DNA of 7,169 nucleotides from a virus (taxonomy: Duplodnaviria; Heunggongvirae; Uroviricota; Caudoviricetes): IMG/VR virus record IMGVR_UViG_2534682222_000019, positions 1 through 7,169 of that record, one strand, 5' to 3'. Under the pieces are notes generated by a model that made no database searches, had not been told where the DNA came from, and saw only the letters and a program-made list of their open reading frames with translations. A program made the position numbers and the translations under genes. This document shows, piece after piece, positions 1-7,169 of this stretch (position 1 is the stretch's first letter; the number at the start of each line of letters is the position of its first letter).

Positions 1-258
1 ATGCAAACCGTTATTTTTGGTCGTTCGGGTTGCCCTTACTGTGTGCGTGCAAAAGATCTGGCTGAGAAATTGAGCAATGAACGCGATGATTTTCAGTATC
101 AGTATGTAGATATTCGTGCGGAAGGGATCACTAAAGAAGATCTACAACAAAAGGCAGGTAAACCCGTAGAAACCGTGCCGCAGATTTTTGTCGATCAGCA
201 ACATATCGGCGGCTATACCGATTTTGCTGCATGGGTGAAAGAAAATCTGGACGCCTGA
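1..258 (+). CDS. grxA: Glutaredoxin 1, complete 85-aa ORF
   Basis: ATG at position 1, stop at 256-258. The translation MQTVIFGRSGCPYCVRAKDLAEK... carries the CPYC dithiol active site and matches E. coli GrxA as I recall it. The promoter lies outside the window. Confidence 0.95.
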   Translation: MQTVIFGRSGCPYCVRAKDLAEKLSNERDDFQYQYVDIRAEGITKEDLQQKAGKPVETVPQIFVDQQHIGGYTDFAAWVKENLDA

Positions 259-267
259 TCGTCTGAC

Positions 268-300
268 AAGCCCTCGCGTTGAGGGCTTTACTGATTTTTT
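268..300 (+). terminator. Rho-independent terminator downstream of grxA
   Basis: Perfect 8-bp stem AAGCCCTC (268-275) / GAGGGCTT (281-288) with a 5-nt loop, followed by a T-rich tract ending in TTTTTT at 295-300. It overlaps the stop codon of the convergent ybjM. Confidence 0.55.
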
Positions 301-665
301 CTGTGCTGTGGTTTAAACAAACTACTGATAAATAAGAAACACAGTGCCCCCAGCGCACACCAGAACACCGCGCTTAGTAACCATGCCAGCTCTTGCCAGA
401 ATGAGCGGGTCGGTGAAAAAAACAGCCGCATAATAAGCATTGAACAGGGTGCCGCCAGCATTGCGCCAAATAGAGGTTTCAGGACTTCTCTACGCTGTGA
501 AAAGAAACTGGCAACTGCTCCAGGAAGAATGAAAAACAGCAAGCCGATTTCAGGATGCCCGGCAGCCCGAAAAGCGCCTTTCATGTGCGTCGCCAGAAAA
601 AGGCACACCACAATGAAGAGGACAAAACAGCAGATTGCCCCCGCCCAACGTTGTTTATGTTTCAC
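288..665 (-). CDS. ybjM: Small inner-membrane protein YbjM (125 aa)
   Basis: Six-frame ORF of 125 aa, strongly hydrophobic with about four predicted transmembrane segments. Sequence and position between grxA and ybjL match the E. coli grxA-ybjM-ybjL neighbourhood. The only in-frame start is GTG. Confidence 0.8.
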   Translation of the reverse strand: MKHKQRWAGAICCFVLFIVVCLFLATHMKGAFRAAGHPEIGLLFFILPGAVASFFSQRREVLKPLFGAMLAAPCSMLIMRLFFSPTRSFWQELAWLLSAVFWCALGALCFLFISSLFKPQHRKNQ

Positions 666-934
666 TCGTTCCTCCTGACACTGCGTCTATCGAACACATT
701 TTTCGCCAGTGTGGCGTTCAGTAAGATAAAGCCGCTTCGCATTCCATGCTAATATAGGCCAACGCAATTCATATAGCCGTTGATACCTAATGTGATTACA
801 CTAGTAAAATATATTGTTACTTTACTATCGTTTAGGTGCGCTGAATGAATCTGCGCCCTGAATTCTGGTAAAAAACATTATCGTAAATTACCATTTCTTT
901 CAACAGCTTACTAGTAAACAAGAAGTTAGCCTCC

Positions 935-2620
935 GTGAATATAAACGTCGCCGAATTGTTAAATGGGAATTACATTCTGTTATTATTTGTGGTCCTCGCG
1001 CTTGGGCTATGTCTCGGAAAGTTACGACTTGGTTCGATCCAACTGGGTAATTCCATTGGCGTTTTGGTCGTATCACTGTTATTAGGCCAACAACATTTCA
1101 GCATTAACACCGACGCGCTTAATCTTGGCTTTATGCTGTTTATTTTCTGCGTCGGGGTCGAAGCCGGACCGAACTTTTTTTCCATTTTTTTTCGCGATGG
1201 GAAAAATTACCTAATGTTAGCACTGGTGATGGTTGGCAGTGCGCTGGTGATCGCCTTAGGGTTAGGTAAGCTGTTTGGCTGGGATATTGGCCTGACGGCC
1301 GGTATGTTAGCAGGCTCTATGACGTCGACACCGGTTCTGGTCGGTGCTGGCGATACACTGCGTCATTCCGGCATGGAAAGCAGGCAGCTCTCACTGGCAC
1401 TGGATAATCTGAGCCTCGGGTATGCCTTAACCTATTTAATCGGTCTGGTGAGTTTGATTGTTGGTGCGCGTTACTTGCCGAAATTGCAGCATCAGGACTT
1501 ACAGACCAGCGCCCAGCAAATCGCCCGCGAACGTGGCCTGGACACTGATGCCAACCGTAAGGTTTATTTACCGGTGATCCGCGCCTATCGCGTCGGCCCG
1601 GAGCTGGTGGCCTGGACCGACGGCAAAAATCTGCGTGAACTGGGTATTTATCGACAAACCGGCTGCTACATTGAACGTATTCGACGTAACGGGATTCTGG
1701 CAAATCCAGACGGTGATGCCGTGCTACAAATGGGCGATGAAATAGCGTTGGTAGGCTATCCCGACGCCCATGCCCGACTCGATCCCAGCTTCCGTAACGG
1801 TAAAGAAGTTTTCGATCGTGACCTTCTCGACATGCGTATCGTCACTGAAGAAGTGGTCGTTAAAAACCATAACGCTGTAGGTAAACGTCTCGCACAACTG
1901 AAGTTGACCGATCACGGTTGCTTCCTTAACCGCGTCATTCGTAGCCAGATTGAGATGCCGATAGATGACAACGTCGTGCTTAACAAAGGTGACGTTTTAC
2001 AAGTCAGCGGTGATGCCCGTCGCGTAAAAACCATCGCCGATCGCATCGGCTTTATCTCGATTCACAGCCAGGTCACTGACCTGCTGGCATTTTGCGCCTT
2101 CTTTGTTATTGGGCTGATGATCGGGATGATCACCTTCCAGTTCAGCACATTCAGTTTCGGCATGGGGAACGCTGCCGGGTTGTTATTCGCCGGAATTATG
2201 CTGGGCTTTATGCGTGCTAACCACCCGACCTTCGGTTACATTCCGCAAGGTGCATTAAGCATGGTGAAAGAGTTCGGCTTGATGGTGTTTATGGCAGGCG
2301 TTGGTCTGAGCGCCGGTAGCGGTATTAATAACGGCCTGGGCGCGATTGGCGGTCAGATGTTGATTGCCGGATTAATTGTCAGTCTTGTGCCCGTGGTTAT
2401 CTGTTTCTTGTTCGGTGCTTATGTATTGCGAATGAACCGCGCACTGTTGTTCGGCGCAATGATGGGCGCACGCACCTGCGCGCCGGCAATGGAGATCATC
2501 AGTGATACAGCTCGCAGTAACATCCCTGCGCTGGGCTATGCGGGCACCTACGCAATCGCCAACGTCCTGCTGACGCTGGCAGGGACAATCATCGTCATGG
2601 TATGGCCAGGATTAGGATAA
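935..2620 (+). CDS. ybjL: Putative AAE-family transporter YbjL with two central RCK_C/TrkA-C-like domains (561 aa)
   Basis: 561-aa ORF with GTG start and TAA stop at 2618-2620. Hydrophobic N- and C-terminal membrane domains flank a soluble central region. Sequence matches E. coli YbjL as recalled. Confidence 0.92.
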
Positions 2621-2732
2621 AACTGAAGTTGCCCTGAAAATGAAATTTTTTTGCACAACCGCAGAACTTTTCCGCAGGGCATCAGTCTTAATTAGTGCCA
2701 CTGCTTTTCTTTGATGTCCCCATTTTGTGGAG

Positions 2733-2775
2733 CCCATCAACCCCGCCATTTCGGTTCAAGGTTGATGGGTTTTTT
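2733..2775 (+). terminator. Rho-independent terminator, probably for ybjL
   Basis: Perfect 10-bp stem CCCATCAACC (2733-2742) / GGTTGATGGG (2760-2769) with a 17-nt loop, followed by TTTTTT (2770-2775). The orientation is productive only for plus-strand transcripts. Confidence 0.6.
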
Positions 2776-2855
2776 GTTGCCTGAAATTTAAGCTGTTTAA
2801 AATCATGATGTTAGAAACACTGTTTTTTAACGATGGCGACAAAATGGCGGCAGCG

Positions 2856-3074
2856 TCAAAGAGAGAGCGCCACCTGTCCTGATTTCATTGGATGCGGCTG
2901 AACCGGATTTGACTCTTTTGGCGTTGCAATCGAACGAACAAAAGTTTCATGGGTAACAAAAGTATGGCTGCAGTTAATGTTCTGGCACTGGTTGTAACGC
3001 TCTTTGGTCAATGAAGATACCTGAAAACTGCTGCGAGTATGGGCGGCACTTCCACACAGTGGGCAAATCATCAT
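2856..3074 (-). CDS. ogr: Ogr/Delta-family zinc-finger late-gene transcriptional activator (72 aa)
   Basis: Start trimmed from the six-frame ORF to the ATG at 3074, which has a GGGGAG Shine-Dalgarno about 10 nt upstream. The product MMICPLCGSAAHTRSS...KERYNQCQNINCSHTF carries the Ogr-type C-X2-C-X22-C-X4-C zinc-binding motif and has the same length as P2 Ogr. Confidence 0.9.
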   Translation of the reverse strand: MMICPLCGSAAHTRSSFQVSSLTKERYNQCQNINCSHTFVTHETFVRSIATPKESNPVQPHPMKSGQVALSL

Positions 3075-3111
3075 TTTTCGAGTTCTCCCCATTTTTGCTA
3101 AATTCACAATA

Positions 3112-3138
3112 ATGATACCGCATTATTCCATTTTGCAA
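3112..3138 (-). promoter_or_regulatory. Candidate sigma70 promoter for ogr
   Basis: On the minus strand, TTGCAA (plus 3133-3138) and TATCAT (plus 3112-3117) lie in the 90-nt gap between L and ogr. The 15-nt spacing is suboptimal. This is a weak, sequence-only call. Confidence 0.2.
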
Positions 3139-3164
3139 ACTTAAAAGTTCTCCATTGCGAAGAA

Positions 3165-3704
3165 TCATTCCATTTCGAAATCATCAATCCTCACTTCAAG
3201 CTCCAGACTGGTTGTAAAACCGTTATCGGGGCTGACGGTATGCGTCAGAGTCGTAATGGTCCATTCCGCATCATCTACCCGGCTGATGGCCCAGCGGGCG
3301 TCACGCCATAAATCACCGCTGGCTTCCGCCAGTTCCTCGCCCCGCTTCACACCGGATGCCGTGGTGTCATAGTCCTGGTAACGTTCGTTGAGCATGGCGC
3401 GTGCCCAGCAGTAAACCGCGTTGAAATAGTGCTGAATGCGCTCACTTTTGCCGTCCAGCTGTTCCGCCGGAACCTCTGCCAGCGAGGCATACCCCAGCAT
3501 CTGCTGGCGTCTGCGAAACTCATACAGCTCTGCGTTGACCTCCGAAATTGCCGACAGCGCAACCTGCTTTAAACGCGGCTGCGTCACCGTGCCGTCAGTG
3601 CGCATGACACTGCGAAACTCCGACAGGTCCACATCAGGCCAGAACGGCGTATTTCTGATGATTTCCGCCTGTTCCGGTGCCTGTTCTGGCGCAACAAACT
3701 TCAT
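3165..3704 (-). CDS. L: P2 gpL-like head completion/stabilisation protein (179 aa)
   Basis: Start trimmed to the ATG at 3704, preceded by AGGAG 8 nt upstream; the six-frame ORF extends further to a non-ATG start. Similar to remembered P2 gpL, including the ELWRDARWAI and NTPFWPDVD motifs. Confidence 0.85.
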   Translation of the reverse strand: MKFVAPEQAPEQAEIIRNTPFWPDVDLSEFRSVMRTDGTVTQPRLKQVALSAISEVNAELYEFRRRQQMLGYASLAEVPAEQLDGKSERIQHYFNAVYCWARAMLNERYQDYDTTASGVKRGEELAEASGDLWRDARWAISRVDDAEWTITTLTHTVSPDNGFTTSLELEVRIDDFEME

Positions 3705-3799
3705 GCTGCTTTCTCCTGAAATAGAGGGCGGTGGACGGGGTTTTGATGTGGCAGTGCCTTTCGCCACCCCGTGCCGCCCGTGCGCGGGGGCACGTTCTG

Positions 3800-4450
3800 T
3801 CAGCGGCTGTCATTGCGCAGTCTGCGCTCCAGCTGCTGTTTGTCTTTTTTCACGCCACAGCGGGGATCGAGCTGTAACGCATGGTTGAGATGATTAAGGG
3901 CAGACGCCGGATTGCTTTCACTCAGGACCGCGCCAATCGCTTTATGCAGACGCGCCCGTGACTGGTCCGGCATATCCAGACCGTCTGTCAGCTCCAGCGT
4001 CTGCAGCAACAGATCGGCATCAAAGCCGGTGGTGGCAAGCATTGCGCTCTGCGCGGCGTCTGCCATTTCCTCTGCCAGCACGGTCTGCACGTTGCGGTTA
4101 CCCAGCGGCATCACCCAGCCATGACGCAGGGCATGACGCCCGATCTCCAGCGCTCCGGCATAATCTCCGGCATCAATGCGCCACAGCATCACGTACATCA
4201 GCACGTCATCCTGTTGAGCGCCTCCGGCAGCCAGGACACCCTCTGCCCAGGCGGCGTACTTCGGCAGCAGCTCCACCTTGATTTCCGCTTTTTTGACCGT
4301 GGACTGAACGCCCTTGAGACGGCGGCGGTCTTCCGCCAGTTGCAGCAGCATCAGGTCATAGCCCGATGCGTGGCGAACACTGCCGCCCTCGCGGGCGGCC
4401 TGTTCAGCCTGAACGCGCAGGCGATGCTGCCGTGCGGGACTCAGGCTCAT
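3800..4450 (-). CDS. M: P2 gpM-like terminase small (endonuclease/DNA-recognition) subunit (216 aa)
   Basis: ATG at 4450 with GGAG 9 nt upstream; the start lies 3 nt after the N stop. Similar to remembered P2 gpM (LLPKY...GAQDD.LM.VMLWR.D.GD.AGALEI...LDMPD). Confidence 0.85.
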   Translation of the reverse strand: MSLSPARQHRLRVQAEQAAREGGSVRHASGYDLMLLQLAEDRRRLKGVQSTVKKAEIKVELLPKYAAWAEGVLAAGGAQQDDVLMYVMLWRIDAGDYAGALEIGRHALRHGWVMPLGNRNVQTVLAEEMADAAQSAMLATTGFDADLLLQTLELTDGLDMPDQSRARLHKAIGAVLSESNPASALNHLNHALQLDPRCGVKKDKQQLERRLRNDSR

Positions 4451-4453
4451 GGA

Positions 4454-5512
4454 TTACGCTCCGGTTTCGGCTGCGGCGGCGCTGAAATCACCAATCTGGA
4501 TGTTTTCCACCAGTGCGGCGCAGCGGTAGTCCTCAACCACATAGGCTTCGTTAACGGATTCAAAGTTTTCAATCCGGTCACGTTTCGGGTTGTCGATAAC
4601 TGAACGGCGGCGGGTGTCTTCCTGCCAGTAGATGGACAGGTTATCCAGACGGGTGATCAGCAGCGCATTCGGCGGGAAGAACGGCGCACGCACGGCCTGC
4701 AGGCCACCCATGCGTTTCTGACTGATGATCATATCGGCAGCCAGTTTTTCACTGTTTTCCTGCTCTTTGTTGACCAGCGGGAAATACTTGTCAGACAGCA
4801 GTTCACGACCGCAAATCACCACCAGATCGTCATCGTCCTGATAGACCACGTCGATAAGCTCATTAACGGCATCCATCACCACGGCGTCCAGGTTGGCATA
4901 TTCGCCACCTTTCCCGACTTTCACCGCACCCGGTGTGGTTTCACCGCCCGTGGTGGTGCTGCCCATGACGTGATCCGGTGCATCCTCACGGATTTTCTGC
5001 AGCCAGCCTTTATTCACATCCTGCAGTAACGGGTTTTCGCTACGGTTGGAGGTTTTCGCACGCTTCACGCCGTTAAAGCCAATCATGATGCGGTCCAGTG
5101 CCTGACGTTTCACGATGGCGTCACGGATACGCACCTGAAAATCCTGAAACTTCGCCCACAGGTCCAGCTTCGCGTAGGTCAGTACCGTGTCAAAGTTGGT
5201 CTGCTCGCATTTATATTCCACATCGACCATCAGCGTCGGATCGACAGGTTCACGCTCTTTCGCGGTGGTATCAGTGGTTCCGGCAATGGTGCTGCCAACT
5301 CCCAACCCCAGCAGCTGACCGGACTGCTCAGTCACTGGCGTGACGTTAATCAGCGTCAGGAAAGCGGCGGACTGCTGGATCTGGTCTTCCAATGTCTGCT
5401 GCACGGACGGCTCTACGGTGAACTTGCTGGACAGTTCTTCAACTGCCACACCGTTCAGACGCGCCAGTTGCTGCAGGTAAGCGTTAAAAGCAAAGCGGGT
5501 ATTCTTCTTCAT
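4454..5512 (-). CDS. N: P2 gpN-like major capsid protein (352 aa)
   Basis: ATG at 5512 and TAA stop at 4454-4456. Similar to remembered P2 gpN along its whole length (TRFAFNAYL...KFTVEPSV...MIGFNGVKRA...GKGGEYANLDA.VMDA...KYFP.VNKEQ.NSE.LAAD.IISQKR...NLSIY...VEDY...GDFS). Confidence 0.92.
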   Translation of the reverse strand: MKKNTRFAFNAYLQQLARLNGVAVEELSSKFTVEPSVQQTLEDQIQQSAAFLTLINVTPVTEQSGQLLGLGVGSTIAGTTDTTAKEREPVDPTLMVDVEYKCEQTNFDTVLTYAKLDLWAKFQDFQVRIRDAIVKRQALDRIMIGFNGVKRAKTSNRSENPLLQDVNKGWLQKIREDAPDHVMGSTTTGGETTPGAVKVGKGGEYANLDAVVMDAVNELIDVVYQDDDDLVVICGRELLSDKYFPLVNKEQENSEKLAADMIISQKRMGGLQAVRAPFFPPNALLITRLDNLSIYWQEDTRRRSVIDNPKRDRIENFESVNEAYVVEDYRCAALVENIQIGDFSAAAAETGA

Positions 5513-5539
5513 CAGGTTTTGTGCTCCATCAGCAATTGG

Positions 5540-6025
5540 TCAGAGTGTCAGCGGGGGCGTCAACCACACAAACCGCAGGCGGGGAAAGCCTTCATTCAAG
5601 GTTGTAGGTTTGTGCCATGAACACCACACTGACACCCGCAGATCTCGATCCCCGTCGGCAGGCCATGCTGCTGTACTTTCAGGGATACCGCGTACCGCAC
5701 CTGCAGCAACACGCCCGATCTCTGCGGTTGCACTCATGACGTAATGTGGCAGTTTCTCTTTTGCCACCTCATTAATCGGTACGCATGGCAGGCAGTGAAT
5801 CTGAGCCAGAAAACCATCTACCAGCGTTGAATCTTCAGTCAGATCGGTAAGCAGCCAGATTTCTGGTGCGGTTAATAAATGAGGTTGCGCTGGGTTCAAC
5901 TTGTTCCGCAGAATCTGCACATTCATGCCAGCACGTTCTGCCAGTTGCACCAGGTTGTGGCGCAATGCGAATGCACGACAGGCTTCATCAAAATGTGGAT
6001 GTTTGGAAACTTGGTAATCAAACAT
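5540..6025 (-). CDS. cII: Phage 186 CII-like (CP76 family) regulatory protein (161 aa)
   Basis: Start trimmed from a TTG to the ATG at 6025, with GAGG upstream. The N-terminal roughly 120 aa ([24 protein letters not shown]...[25 protein letters not shown]...) match the 186 CII / CP76 family as recalled. The C-terminal roughly 40 aa look atypical and overlap the cos-like sequence. Confidence 0.8.
5567..5614. other. cos-like core (AGGCGGGGAAAGC, 5577-5589) inside an 8-bp inverted repeat (CACAAACC 5567-5574 / GGTTTGTG 5607-5614)
   Basis: The 13-mer is identical to the central part of the 19-nt P2/P4 cohesive end as I remember it (GGCGAGGCGGGGAAAGCAC). The flanking inverted repeat is read directly from the sequence. 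It sits at the cII 3' end, upstream of N. Confidence 0.4.
5611..5628 (-). promoter_or_regulatory. TGT-N12-ACA dyad; possible Ogr-responsive late-promoter element upstream of N
   Basis: The minus strand reads TGTGGTGTTCATGGCACA, about 100 nt upstream of the N start. This fits the P2 late-promoter dyad consensus, but the motif is short and could occur by chance. Confidence 0.2.
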
Positions 6026-6057
6026 GGTCAATGCCTCTGATGTATTTCAGAATCGAA

Positions 6058-6279
6058 CTAATTAAGGTTTAGATTGCATTCTGAAAGCGCATCAACGGTC
6101 ATTGCTGCTATGTTGATCATCACTTTTTCGCGTTTTTTATCTTTGCGCAGACGGTGACGGATAAGGCGTCCATCAGCCAACATGTCATTGATGGTATCGA
6201 TGGATAGCCCTGTCAGCTCGCTATAGCGTTCAATAGTCACATGGGGGGTGGTAAGAGTGATTGAAATGTTAGGTCTCAT
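6058..6279 (-). CDS. Cox/Apl-like small helix-turn-helix excisionase/regulator (73 aa)
   Basis: ATG at 6279 with GAGG upstream. It is the first gene of the leftward operon and sits immediately upstream of cII, as apl does in 186. The HTH segment [24 protein letters not shown] resembles the P2 Cox DNA-binding region. Confidence 0.65.
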
Positions 6280-6404
6280 GATGCAACATTCCTCGTTTAA
6301 TGATGATTAATCAGGACGAATACGGATCGTTTGTATTTTGTGAACACCATAAACATACGATCGCACAGTGAAATCGTAAAGATAAAAGTTCACTTGGAGT
6401 GACC
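6280..6404. promoter_or_regulatory. Immunity switch region between the divergent cox/apl-cII operon and cI
   Basis: 125-bp AT-rich intergenic region between divergently transcribed regulators. It contains a perfect 10-bp palindrome TGATTAATCA (6304-6313), a CGATCG palindrome (6358-6363) and an imperfect direct repeat ATACGGATCG / ATACGATCG (6320-6329 and 6355-6363). Exact promoters were not resolved. Confidence 0.5.
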
Positions 6405-6974
6405 ATGAATTTGGAGAAAGGCGGACGAGGCGCTATAGAGCGCATGGTAGAAGCTTATGGATTCAAGACTCGACAGGCGTTGTGCGATCATTTAGGAATC
6501 TCTAAAAGTACACTCGCCACACGCTACATGCGTGACTCATTCCCAGCAGAATGGGTAATCCAGTGCGCCCTTGAAACAGGCACCTCGCTTAATTGGCTCA
6601 CAACCGGGCATGGTTCAAAGCAAACTTCAGGTAATACAAATACTATGGAAGTTGCTAAATATGTATTATCTGATGGGGCCTTGTGTGAAGACGGTTTTTA
6701 TATTTTCGATAGAGAATTTCTACCGTCGGCATTCAAGAATCTTTTTGTAATCACAGATAATAATTCTGAATTTATTTGTGATAAGGAATTTGATGATATA
6801 CGTGATGGTAAATGGGTAATAAGTATTGATGGCGAAATAACGATCCGTGACATTACTCGTTTACCCGGTGGAAGAATCTTCGTCGAGGGTGGAAACAGAG
6901 CCTTCGAGTGCAAGATAGAAGATGTTGAAATAATTGGGAAAATTATAAGTTTAACAATTAAGTACGTTAGGTAA
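6405..6974 (+). CDS. cI: Phage 186-type CI repressor (189 aa)
   Basis: Start trimmed from a GTG to the ATG at 6405, with GGAG 5 nt upstream. The N-terminal HTH domain (EAYGF...L..HLGISKSTLATRY.R...P....IQCALETGTSLNWLTTG) matches the 186 CI family as recalled, and the length is close to the 192 aa of 186 CI. Confidence 0.85.
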   Translation: MNLEKGGRGAIERMVEAYGFKTRQALCDHLGISKSTLATRYMRDSFPAEWVIQCALETGTSLNWLTTGHGSKQTSGNTNTMEVAKYVLSDGALCEDGFYIFDREFLPSAFKNLFVITDNNSEFICDKEFDDIRDGKWVISIDGEITIRDITRLPGGRIFVEGGNRAFECKIEDVEIIGKIISLTIKYVR

Positions 6975-6989
6975 TACCGGGAGGAAACT

Positions 6990-7169
6990 ATGCTTGGTAA
7001 GGTATTTTTTGTGGTTTTATCATGCTCTTTGTTATTAAACCCACTAACTACCTATGCTAAAAATTATCCTTGTTCTGGGAAAAAGGGAGGTGTCTCTCAC
7101 TGTACCTCCGATGGAAAGTTCGTTTGCAATGATGGAACTATTAGTAAATCAAAAAAAATCTGGGTAATG
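6990..7169 (+). CDS. 5' part of an ORF for a small signal-peptide-bearing, Cys-containing protein (truncated by window end)
   Basis: ATG at 6990 with GGGAGG 5 nt upstream and no stop before the window end. The product [23 protein letters not shown]|[26 protein letters not shown]... has a typical N-terminal signal peptide. No family was recognised. Confidence 0.5.

Follow-up and report, generated by a model that had tools for sequence, protein, structure and literature searches.

The scaffold gene O and the late promoter were very probably taken from the front of the capsid gene N by an 888-bp deletion in a decaying prophage; the dyad at 5611–5628, in which the initial annotation had seen a possible late promoter for N-M-L, is then an unrelated chance motif. 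The analysis covered the whole stretch of DNA (7,169 nt, referred to below as the window).

Layout of the window and gene content of the prophage remnant

Bases 1–2790 are ordinary chromosomal DNA of E. coli, carrying grxA, ybjM, ybjL and the rybB sRNA gene, and P2/186-type genes are packed from about position 2790 to the end of the window. In prophage-free E. coli genomes the match to the window stops at 2778–2790. Beyond the window the carrier genomes continue with an IS1 insertion, followed by an integrase gene and then by rcdA; the attachment site is flanked by rybB/ybjL on one side and by rcdA on the other, and intact or larger relatives were found at the same site. Felsduovirus prophages are known to integrate within rybB in E. 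coli (published hotspot #29, Hochhauser et al. 2023, PMC10121019). Positions 2779–7169 are accordingly read here as a Felsduovirus-type (P2/186-like) prophage remnant integrated at rybB, the copy comprising about 4.4 kb plus int beyond an IS1. The following features were assigned:

2700–2778, plus strand: rybB sRNA gene, adjoining the prophage end (Rfam RF00110, 105.3 bits, E 1.4e-21)
2856–3074, minus strand: ogr, late-gene activator, 72 aa, apparently intact (Pfam Ogr_Delta, E 6.7e-22; a 72-aa gene is also called in the carriers)
3112–3139, minus strand: sigma-70-like site TTTGCA-16-TATCAT, probable ogr promoter (consensus scan, 9/12; putative function)
3165–3275, minus strand: final 36 codons and stop of tail gene D, joined in frame to L (same as the D fragment of E. 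coli 22F46)
3276–3704, minus strand: L', head completion gene, native codons 1–143 (Pfam Phage_GPL, E 4.1e-47; intact L has 154 aa)
3800–4450, minus strand: M, terminase small/endonuclease subunit, full length (Pfam Phage_term_smal, E 1.4e-40; length as in intact relatives)
4454–5512, minus strand: N, major capsid protein, 352 aa, full length (Pfam Phage_cap_P2, E 3.5e-152)
5695–6025, minus strand: cII', native codons 1–111 (Pfam Phage_CP76 on residues 12–113 only; intact cII has 169 aa)
6058–6279, minus strand: apl/cox-like gene, 73 aa (adjoins CI in intact relatives; annotated as Cox in ON470620)
6352–6380, minus strand: putative pR-like early promoter TTTACG-17-TATGTT, upstream of apl (relaxed scan, 8/12; position corresponds to 186 pR)
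6405–6974, plus strand: CI repressor, 186 type, 189 aa, intact (Pfam Phage_CI_repr, E 2.8e-33; Phage_CI_C, E 8.7e-27; length as in relatives)
6990–7169, plus strand: small ydcA-like ORF, cut short by an IS1 insertion at the end of the window (gene lists of carriers L006–L008)

RybB was the only hit of the Rfam scan of the window, and no match was obtained in the phage part. The site at 3112–3139 lies where the ogr/B promoters are annotated in P2 and 186. The apl/cox-like gene gave no Pfam hit, and in an exact-protein look-up the cII' ORF was matched with an ATG start and unmatched with a TTG start. In carriers L006–L008 the IS1 transposase genes follow immediately past the ydcA-like ORF, which is represented by a 63-aa gene in sister alleles without IS1.

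The features expected of a defective prophage were all found. The phage-end genes are in place (ogr at one end, int at the other), and gene borders are formed by junctions that, on comparison with intact relatives, are deletions giving rise to truncated or chimeric ORFs. Essential lytic functions are missing, and among related alleles decay has taken other courses or gone further. Genes for replication, portal, large terminase, scaffold, lysis and tail are all absent from the remnant, and a search for the P2/186 cos that allowed up to 3 mismatches gave no hit.

The deletion scar upstream of N

P2-like phages transcribe P and O in opposite directions from a common intergenic control region. The corresponding region of the window was mapped by alignment with intact relatives (the E. 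coli EC24.26 prophage, phage vB_EcoM-813R9 and L262). On the minus strand the order was found to be cII codons 1–111 (6025–5695), gpP codons 26–1 in antisense (5694–5617), 56 nt of the P/O intergenic region (5616–5561), the 3' end of O with the spacer (5560–5513), and N. The outer pieces of the P/O-derived segment are:

5513–5560, minus strand: last 32 nt of O (5529–5560) plus the native O-N spacer with the N ribosome-binding site (alignment with intact relatives; contiguous with N in L262 at 100% identity)
5617–5694, plus strand: gpP' stub, first 26 codons of the terminase ATPase subunit (Pfam Terminase_5 positions 1–19, E 3.3e-6)

The O deletion has its junction at 5560/5561 and corresponds to L262 positions 7257–8144 (888 bp), a loss of 86 nt of intergenic DNA and 802 of the 834 nt of O. 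A second deletion (junction at about 5694/5695) joined cII codon 111 to gpP codon 26, the stub being the same as in intact relatives up to 5694. By a third, L was joined in frame to the end of D (junction 3267–3285, which is the extent of the L'/'D overlap).

The description from which the initial annotation started was correct in outline and was modified in each of its parts. N is indeed not preceded by a full O gene, but the last 32 nt of O persist at 5529–5560. The distance of 27 nt between the preceding stop and N was reproduced (ORF stop at 5540, N ATG at 5512), but the 3' end of this ORF is not cII: past cII residue 111 the called ORF (5540–6025) consists of a 50-residue nonsense tail that runs through the antisense gpP stub, the P/O remnant and the end of O. 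As for the retention of N-M-L, N and M are of full length, whereas in the L-like ORF called at 3165–3704 (minus strand) the last 11 residues of L have been lost and replaced by 36 residues of the gpD C-terminus.

O was found directly before N, with P divergent, in 76/76 other loci with full flank (species-representative genomes). This arrangement of a functional head operon is absent from the window, where O is reduced to 32 nt and P to 26 codons. From the alignments, 5513–5640 is a composite deletion scar rather than a regulatory module.

The genuine activator site of the late promoters

Reference activator sites and their geometry were taken from the feature annotation of the P2 and 186 GenBank records (P2 pO, pP and pF; 186 pV and pJ), and the Ogr-site consensus of P2 was taken from PMC3931495. 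The background invoked in the initial annotation, namely that O is first in the late operon of P2 with an activator site near −55, was confirmed by the annotation of the P2 record (NC_001895), in which pO and pP, whose transcripts begin at 3127 and 3016, have one activator site (3057–3087) in common; the 18-mer TGTGTCAGTGATAAGCCA in this site has its centre 55.5 nt from each start. In the 186 record (NC_001317) a B-protein site is annotated at 3798–3817 (TGTGTGGGCGGTTGTCCA) for pV and p12. The distance from the site centre to the ATG of the scaffold gene is 95.5 nt in P2 and 87.5 nt in 186 and PSP3.

Intact relatives of the window lineage carry a perfect TGTGTGGTTGTCGGTACA centred 87.5 nt upstream of the O ATG, the same distance as in phage 186. 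A perfect dyad was present at the activator position in 80/80 IMG/VR loci of the lineage, in all seven diverged Yersinia, Salmonella and Klebsiella phages (with a variable interior) and in 48 of the 76 species-representative genomes, where its centre is invariably 55.5 nt away from the A of the gpP ATG. The O deletion falls inside this site, between TGTGTGGTTG and TCGGTACA; 10 of the 18 nt survive and are followed by the 3' end of O:

5561–5570, minus strand: surviving half TGTGTGGTTG of the activator site TGTGTGGTTGTCGGTACA (alignment; homologous to the annotated P2 and 186 sites)

Across 41 distinct sequences the core elements of PO, GTTGTTTC and GCAA(A/C)CATAAG, are conserved, and the latter matches in position GGAAACTG, the −10 of P2 pO and 186 pV. 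Both are absent from the window, and an intact PO, with a full activator dyad and the conserved core, was accordingly not found there. By homology to the annotated P2 and 186 sites, the bisected site appears to be the genuine late-promoter activator site of the lineage. Because the deletion that removed O also took the complete PO core and one half of the dyad, N-M-L' would be left without a late promoter of their own.

The P2 pO/pP site resembles the bisected site in that it lies mid-intergenic between divergent P and O and has the form TGTGT...(C/A)CA, and in both cases about 55.5 nt separate the activator site from the start to either side. The distance from the activator site to the gpP ATG is 55.5 nt in the window lineage versus 78.5 nt in P2, and the window, unlike P2, is without PO and retains the site at 10 of 18 nt.

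The dyad at 5611–5628

5611–5628, no strand assigned: dyad TGTGCCATGAACACCACA, at about −6 to +12 of PP, covering the gpP ATG and codon 4 (ACA) (motif scan, relatives compared)

The TGT-N12-ACA dyad itself was verified as TGTGCCATGAACACCACA, with its centre 107.5 nt from the N ATG. It has the motif of an Ogr/B/Delta late promoter and conforms in addition to TGTG-N10-CACA, a perfect 8-nt palindrome. TGT-N12-ACA alone is at chance level, since 72 of 200 shuffles reach 3 or more, the window containing 3 against 2.1 expected. TGTG-N10-CACA was found once window-wide against 0.16 expected (31/200 shuffles with at least one), and the chance probability of the palindrome in a 128-nt target is about 0.3–3%.

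That this dyad binds Ogr and acts as a functional late promoter for N-M-L was judged to be very improbable. The motif is perfect, an apparently intact ogr gene is present in the same remnant, and the TGTG...(C/A)CA form is shared by the genuine sites of the family; TGTG-N10-CACA equals or betters those sites, and Ogr may be able to bind it in vitro. Since a perfect TGTG...CACA is not dismissible from sequence alone, position and conservation must decide.

The geometry was judged by a dyad centre about 55–58 nt upstream of the start and a −10-like hexamer beginning about 43.5 nt from that centre. A start 55.5–58.5 nt downstream of the dyad centre would fall at 5561–5564, on the deletion junction; the expected −10 window reads GCGGTT/CGGTTT, and 5565–5585 (N strand) contains no A. 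A −10-like A2/T6 hexamer was not found 43–45 nt from the centre (the nearest start 27.5 and 70.5 nt away), nor was a sigma-70-like site scoring at least 7/12 found on the N strand in 5513–5800 by consensus scan.

Position and conservation were equally unfavourable to an Ogr-dependent promoter at this place. In intact relatives, as in the progenitor-state allele, the distance from this dyad to the O ATG is 145.5 nt, and the motif overlaps the start codon of gpP, its centre falling 2.5 nt within P; no counterpart was found in P2, 186 or PSP3. Since 5611–5628 spans about −6 to +12 of PP, it is not the activator position for either late promoter. The dyad is lost in 5/7 diverged relatives and perfect in 11 of the 76 loci. 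Among 43 distinct sequences, TGT was present at −6 to −4 in 15 and ACA at codon 4 in 27; both together were observed in 10, against 9.4 expected under independence (n=43), an approximate figure given that the sequences are phylogenetically related. Recurrence of the dyad in 11/76 loci was considered as a sign of selection and rejected, because the two halves occur independently. ACA is over-represented at gpP codon 4 (63% vs 7% of Thr codons elsewhere in the gene), and this position is constrained by something.

Out of four testable features of a late promoter, the dyad shows the bare motif and lacks the other three. On these grounds (geometry, positional homology and conservation) the proposal of a late promoter embedded in the 3' end of cII was not supported, the genuine site lying elsewhere and being bisected. 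The motif at 5611–5628 appears to be the chance sum of TGTGCC just upstream of the gpP ATG and ACA as the fourth codon. A variant in which TGTG-N10-CACA is a second Ogr operator of the sub-lineage, placed upstream of N by the deletion, with the remnant serving as an accidental defence, is barely credible. Were it true, Ogr (that of the remnant or that of a superinfecting P2-like phage) would switch on N as a scaffold-less capsid protein, M and the L-D chimera, and these products would interfere with head assembly of the incoming phage.

The PP core promoter and the start of gpP

5561–5616, plus strand: P/O intergenic remnant with the PP core promoter, −10 TAGGTT at 5605–5610 (predicted start at the gpP ATG)

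A TAnnnT hexamer was found 6 nt upstream of the gpP ATG in 43/43 distinct Enterobacterales sequences. Because this hexamer is fixed and the activator site lies 55.5 nt from the gpP ATG, PP is predicted to start at or next to this ATG, so that the terminase mRNA of Felsduovirus-type phages would have no leader. In the P2 record, gene V is likewise annotated as leaderless.

The retained PP core (5561–5616), with the promoter-proximal half-site, is unlikely still to fire, with or without Ogr, and such activity would be compatible with the deletion-scar explanation. The transcript would run rightward from about 5617, antisense to cII' and apl and opposite to N. Neither the −10 TAGGTT nor the conserved CGGGGAAAG block upstream has been damaged, and the half-site nearest PP is retained, but half of the activator dyad has been replaced by unrelated sequence, and P2-family late promoters are described as activator dependent (PMC3931495).

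Transcription of N-M-L'

All promoter and terminator calls were made by consensus scans, and on the N-sense strand neither a promoter-like nor a terminator-like site was detected between apl/cII' and N. The 888-bp deletion eliminated the O-proximal half of the Ogr-binding dyad, the PO core, the transcription start, the leader and the O start codon. Because PO is lost and the N strand carries no promoter or terminator between apl and N, any N-M-L' RNA would be expected to come from transcription that starts at the early promoter ahead of apl and continues into N; with CI intact, this promoter should be repressed. Such read-through, which the initial annotation had offered as a very unusual early expression of capsid genes, is left by elimination as the sole alternative, but as a by-product of deletion in a dead prophage and not as a regulatory design.

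Sister alleles and the course of decay

The L'-'D fusion protein was found on 234 contigs and the cII' chimera on 80. L262 and L267 are 100% identical to window positions 1–5560 and show no mismatches over 5561–5694, and both keep O and the full promoter region; the DNA of N is likewise 100% identical in alleles still carrying O. Because L262 and L267 match the window at 100% yet keep O, the O deletion is very recent. Other alleles with the L'-'D scar are arranged differently. A...Q-P, the divergent O and N-M-L' are kept in L262, L265, L268 and L270, and apl is joined to a truncated P in L267. L264 and L266 carry a Fil::O fusion with a 77-aa N fragment, L269 retains a 57-aa N fragment, and in L261 cII is joined directly to L', N and M being gone. 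A genome of the window type (L007) has lost a further 631 bp across M and L'. From the neighbourhoods of the L'-'D scar, these alleles at the rybB site form a decay series that goes back to a single ancestor.

A further reading, in which int-CI-apl-cII'-N-M-L'-ogr is a selected mini-element (a satellite, or an anti-phage module that poisons P2-like assembly with scaffold-less capsid protein), was regarded as extremely improbable. It could appeal to the full length of N, M, ogr, CI and apl, to the presence of the allele on about 80 contigs and to the tidy gene spacing. All three junctions, however, lie inside genes and give nonsense or chimeric tails, and cos, a replication module, portal, large terminase and scaffold are lacking. 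Sister alleles kept quite different gene subsets, one window-type allele is already short of parts of M/L', and O stands before N in all 76 other loci. Since the progenitor-state alleles are 100% identical over 5.5 kb, selection would not yet be visible. A satellite of the P4-like or cfPICI kind was rejected specifically, as no cos, replication or hijacking genes are present and the junctions lie inside ORFs. The O-less arrangement is best described as ordinary recent prophage decay, with no evidence of selection.

Comparison with known systems

The remnant shares its integration site with the Felsduovirus prophages at the E. coli rybB hotspot, and the P/O region of the window lineage is 93–94% identical to that of Salmonella phages RE-2010 and SEN8, both assigned to Felsduovirus. 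With phage 186 it shares the 186-type CI/apl/cII immunity region; unlike the remnant, 186 is intact, has a 23-nt leader on the side of the P homologue and contains tum and replication genes.

E. coli K-12 carries a cryptic P2-type remnant, ogrK/yegZ (D'), in which ogr lies next to a gpD C-terminal fragment at an attachment site, most of the prophage having been deleted. The present remnant differs from it in its chromosomal site and in having also kept N, M, L' and the immunity region. The late promoters of P4 follow the same TGT-N12-ACA logic as those of P2. P4 and the capsid-forming PICIs are, like the remnant, small integrated elements linked to P2-type helpers; unlike them, the remnant has no cos, no replication/primase module and no sid/psu/delta-type hijacking genes.

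Significance

Had 5611–5628 contained a functional promoter, the control of capsid genes in a mini-element would have been rewired in an unusual way. The evidence shows instead the commonplace decay of a prophage at an established hotspot, of which progenitor and sibling alleles are still in circulation. The fixed 55.5-nt spacing and the −10 hexamer present in 43/43 sequences may be of modest use to specialists in the P2 family. The real regulatory element lies 50 nt from the 5611–5628 dyad and has been bisected; the case calls for caution, since a tidy order of genes (cII-N-M-L-ogr) can result from recent deletions, and so can a perfect consensus motif.

Predicted start of the gpP transcript

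The predicted promoter of gpP (PP) was compared across the divergent P/O control regions of species-representative genomes, which comprise 43 distinct Enterobacterales sequences (L184-L260). In all 43 of these, a TAnnnT -10 element lies exactly 6 nt 5' of the gpP ATG (window 5561-5619), and across the same set of distinct regions the spacing between the centre of the Ogr/B-type activator dyad and the first base of this start codon is exactly 55.5 nt. Judged by these two spacings, the large-terminase mRNA of the window lineage looks leaderless. The corresponding distance from the dyad to the ATG of the P homologue is 78.5 nt in P2, 186 and PSP3, which have a 23-nt leader, whereas it is 55.5 nt in the window lineage.

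Codon 4 of gpP (window 5626-5628) is ACA in 27 of the 43 distinct sequences, although further into these genes (codons 5-200) only 7% of the Thr codons are ACA. The preference marks an unexplained constraint close to the start of the probably leaderless mRNA.

Window 5577-5589 (+ strand) reads AGGCGGGGAAAGC, and all 13 nt match exactly the core of the cohesive end of P2, GGCGAGGCGGGGAAAGCAC. The match occupies the -35 region of PP, where many relatives keep CGGGGAAAGC, and the full cos pattern was not matched. AGGCGGGGAAAGC could be a coincidence, or an element related to the terminase or to the promoter.

Prophage boundaries and decay

The following features of the remnant and its flank were located:

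2700-2778, + strand, rybB sRNA gene, adjoining the prophage end
3165-3704, - strand, L'-'D chimera, in which 143 codons of L are followed in frame by the final 36 codons of tail gene D

The match of prophage-free genomes to the window stops at 2778-2790, which places the attachment core either across or next to the 3' end of rybB, a site described in the literature as an integration hotspot in E. coli for Felsduovirus only (PMC10121019). The intact-type relative used in the comparison (ON470620.1, 'Escherichia phage vB_EcoM-813R9') is flanked by the host genes artP...ybjT on one side and rcdA...dacC on the other. Listed in GenBank as a 'phage', the record covers a prophage region and is incomplete as a phage genome, because the tail sheath-to-D genes and ogr itself are missing.

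An identical L'-'D protein was found on 234 contigs. Its database label is merely 'head completion/stabilization protein'.

The window end (7163-7169) is the terminal repeat of an IS1 copy that continues beyond it (8100-8860 in the window-type carrier L006) and is inserted into a ydcA-like ORF between CI and int; this insertion is absent from the sister alleles L261, L264 and L267. A sister allele, present at L264 and L266 (8080-8877), carries a 265-aa Fil::O fusion ORF (Phage_186_Fil + Phage_GPO_N) with a 77-aa fragment of N after it, and represents a separate deletion route out of the common ancestor. A further window-type allele (L007, GCA_037022885.1) has an extra 631-bp deletion, equivalent to window 3587-4217, which fuses shortened forms of M (95 aa) and of L (111 aa) and shows that decay is still under way.
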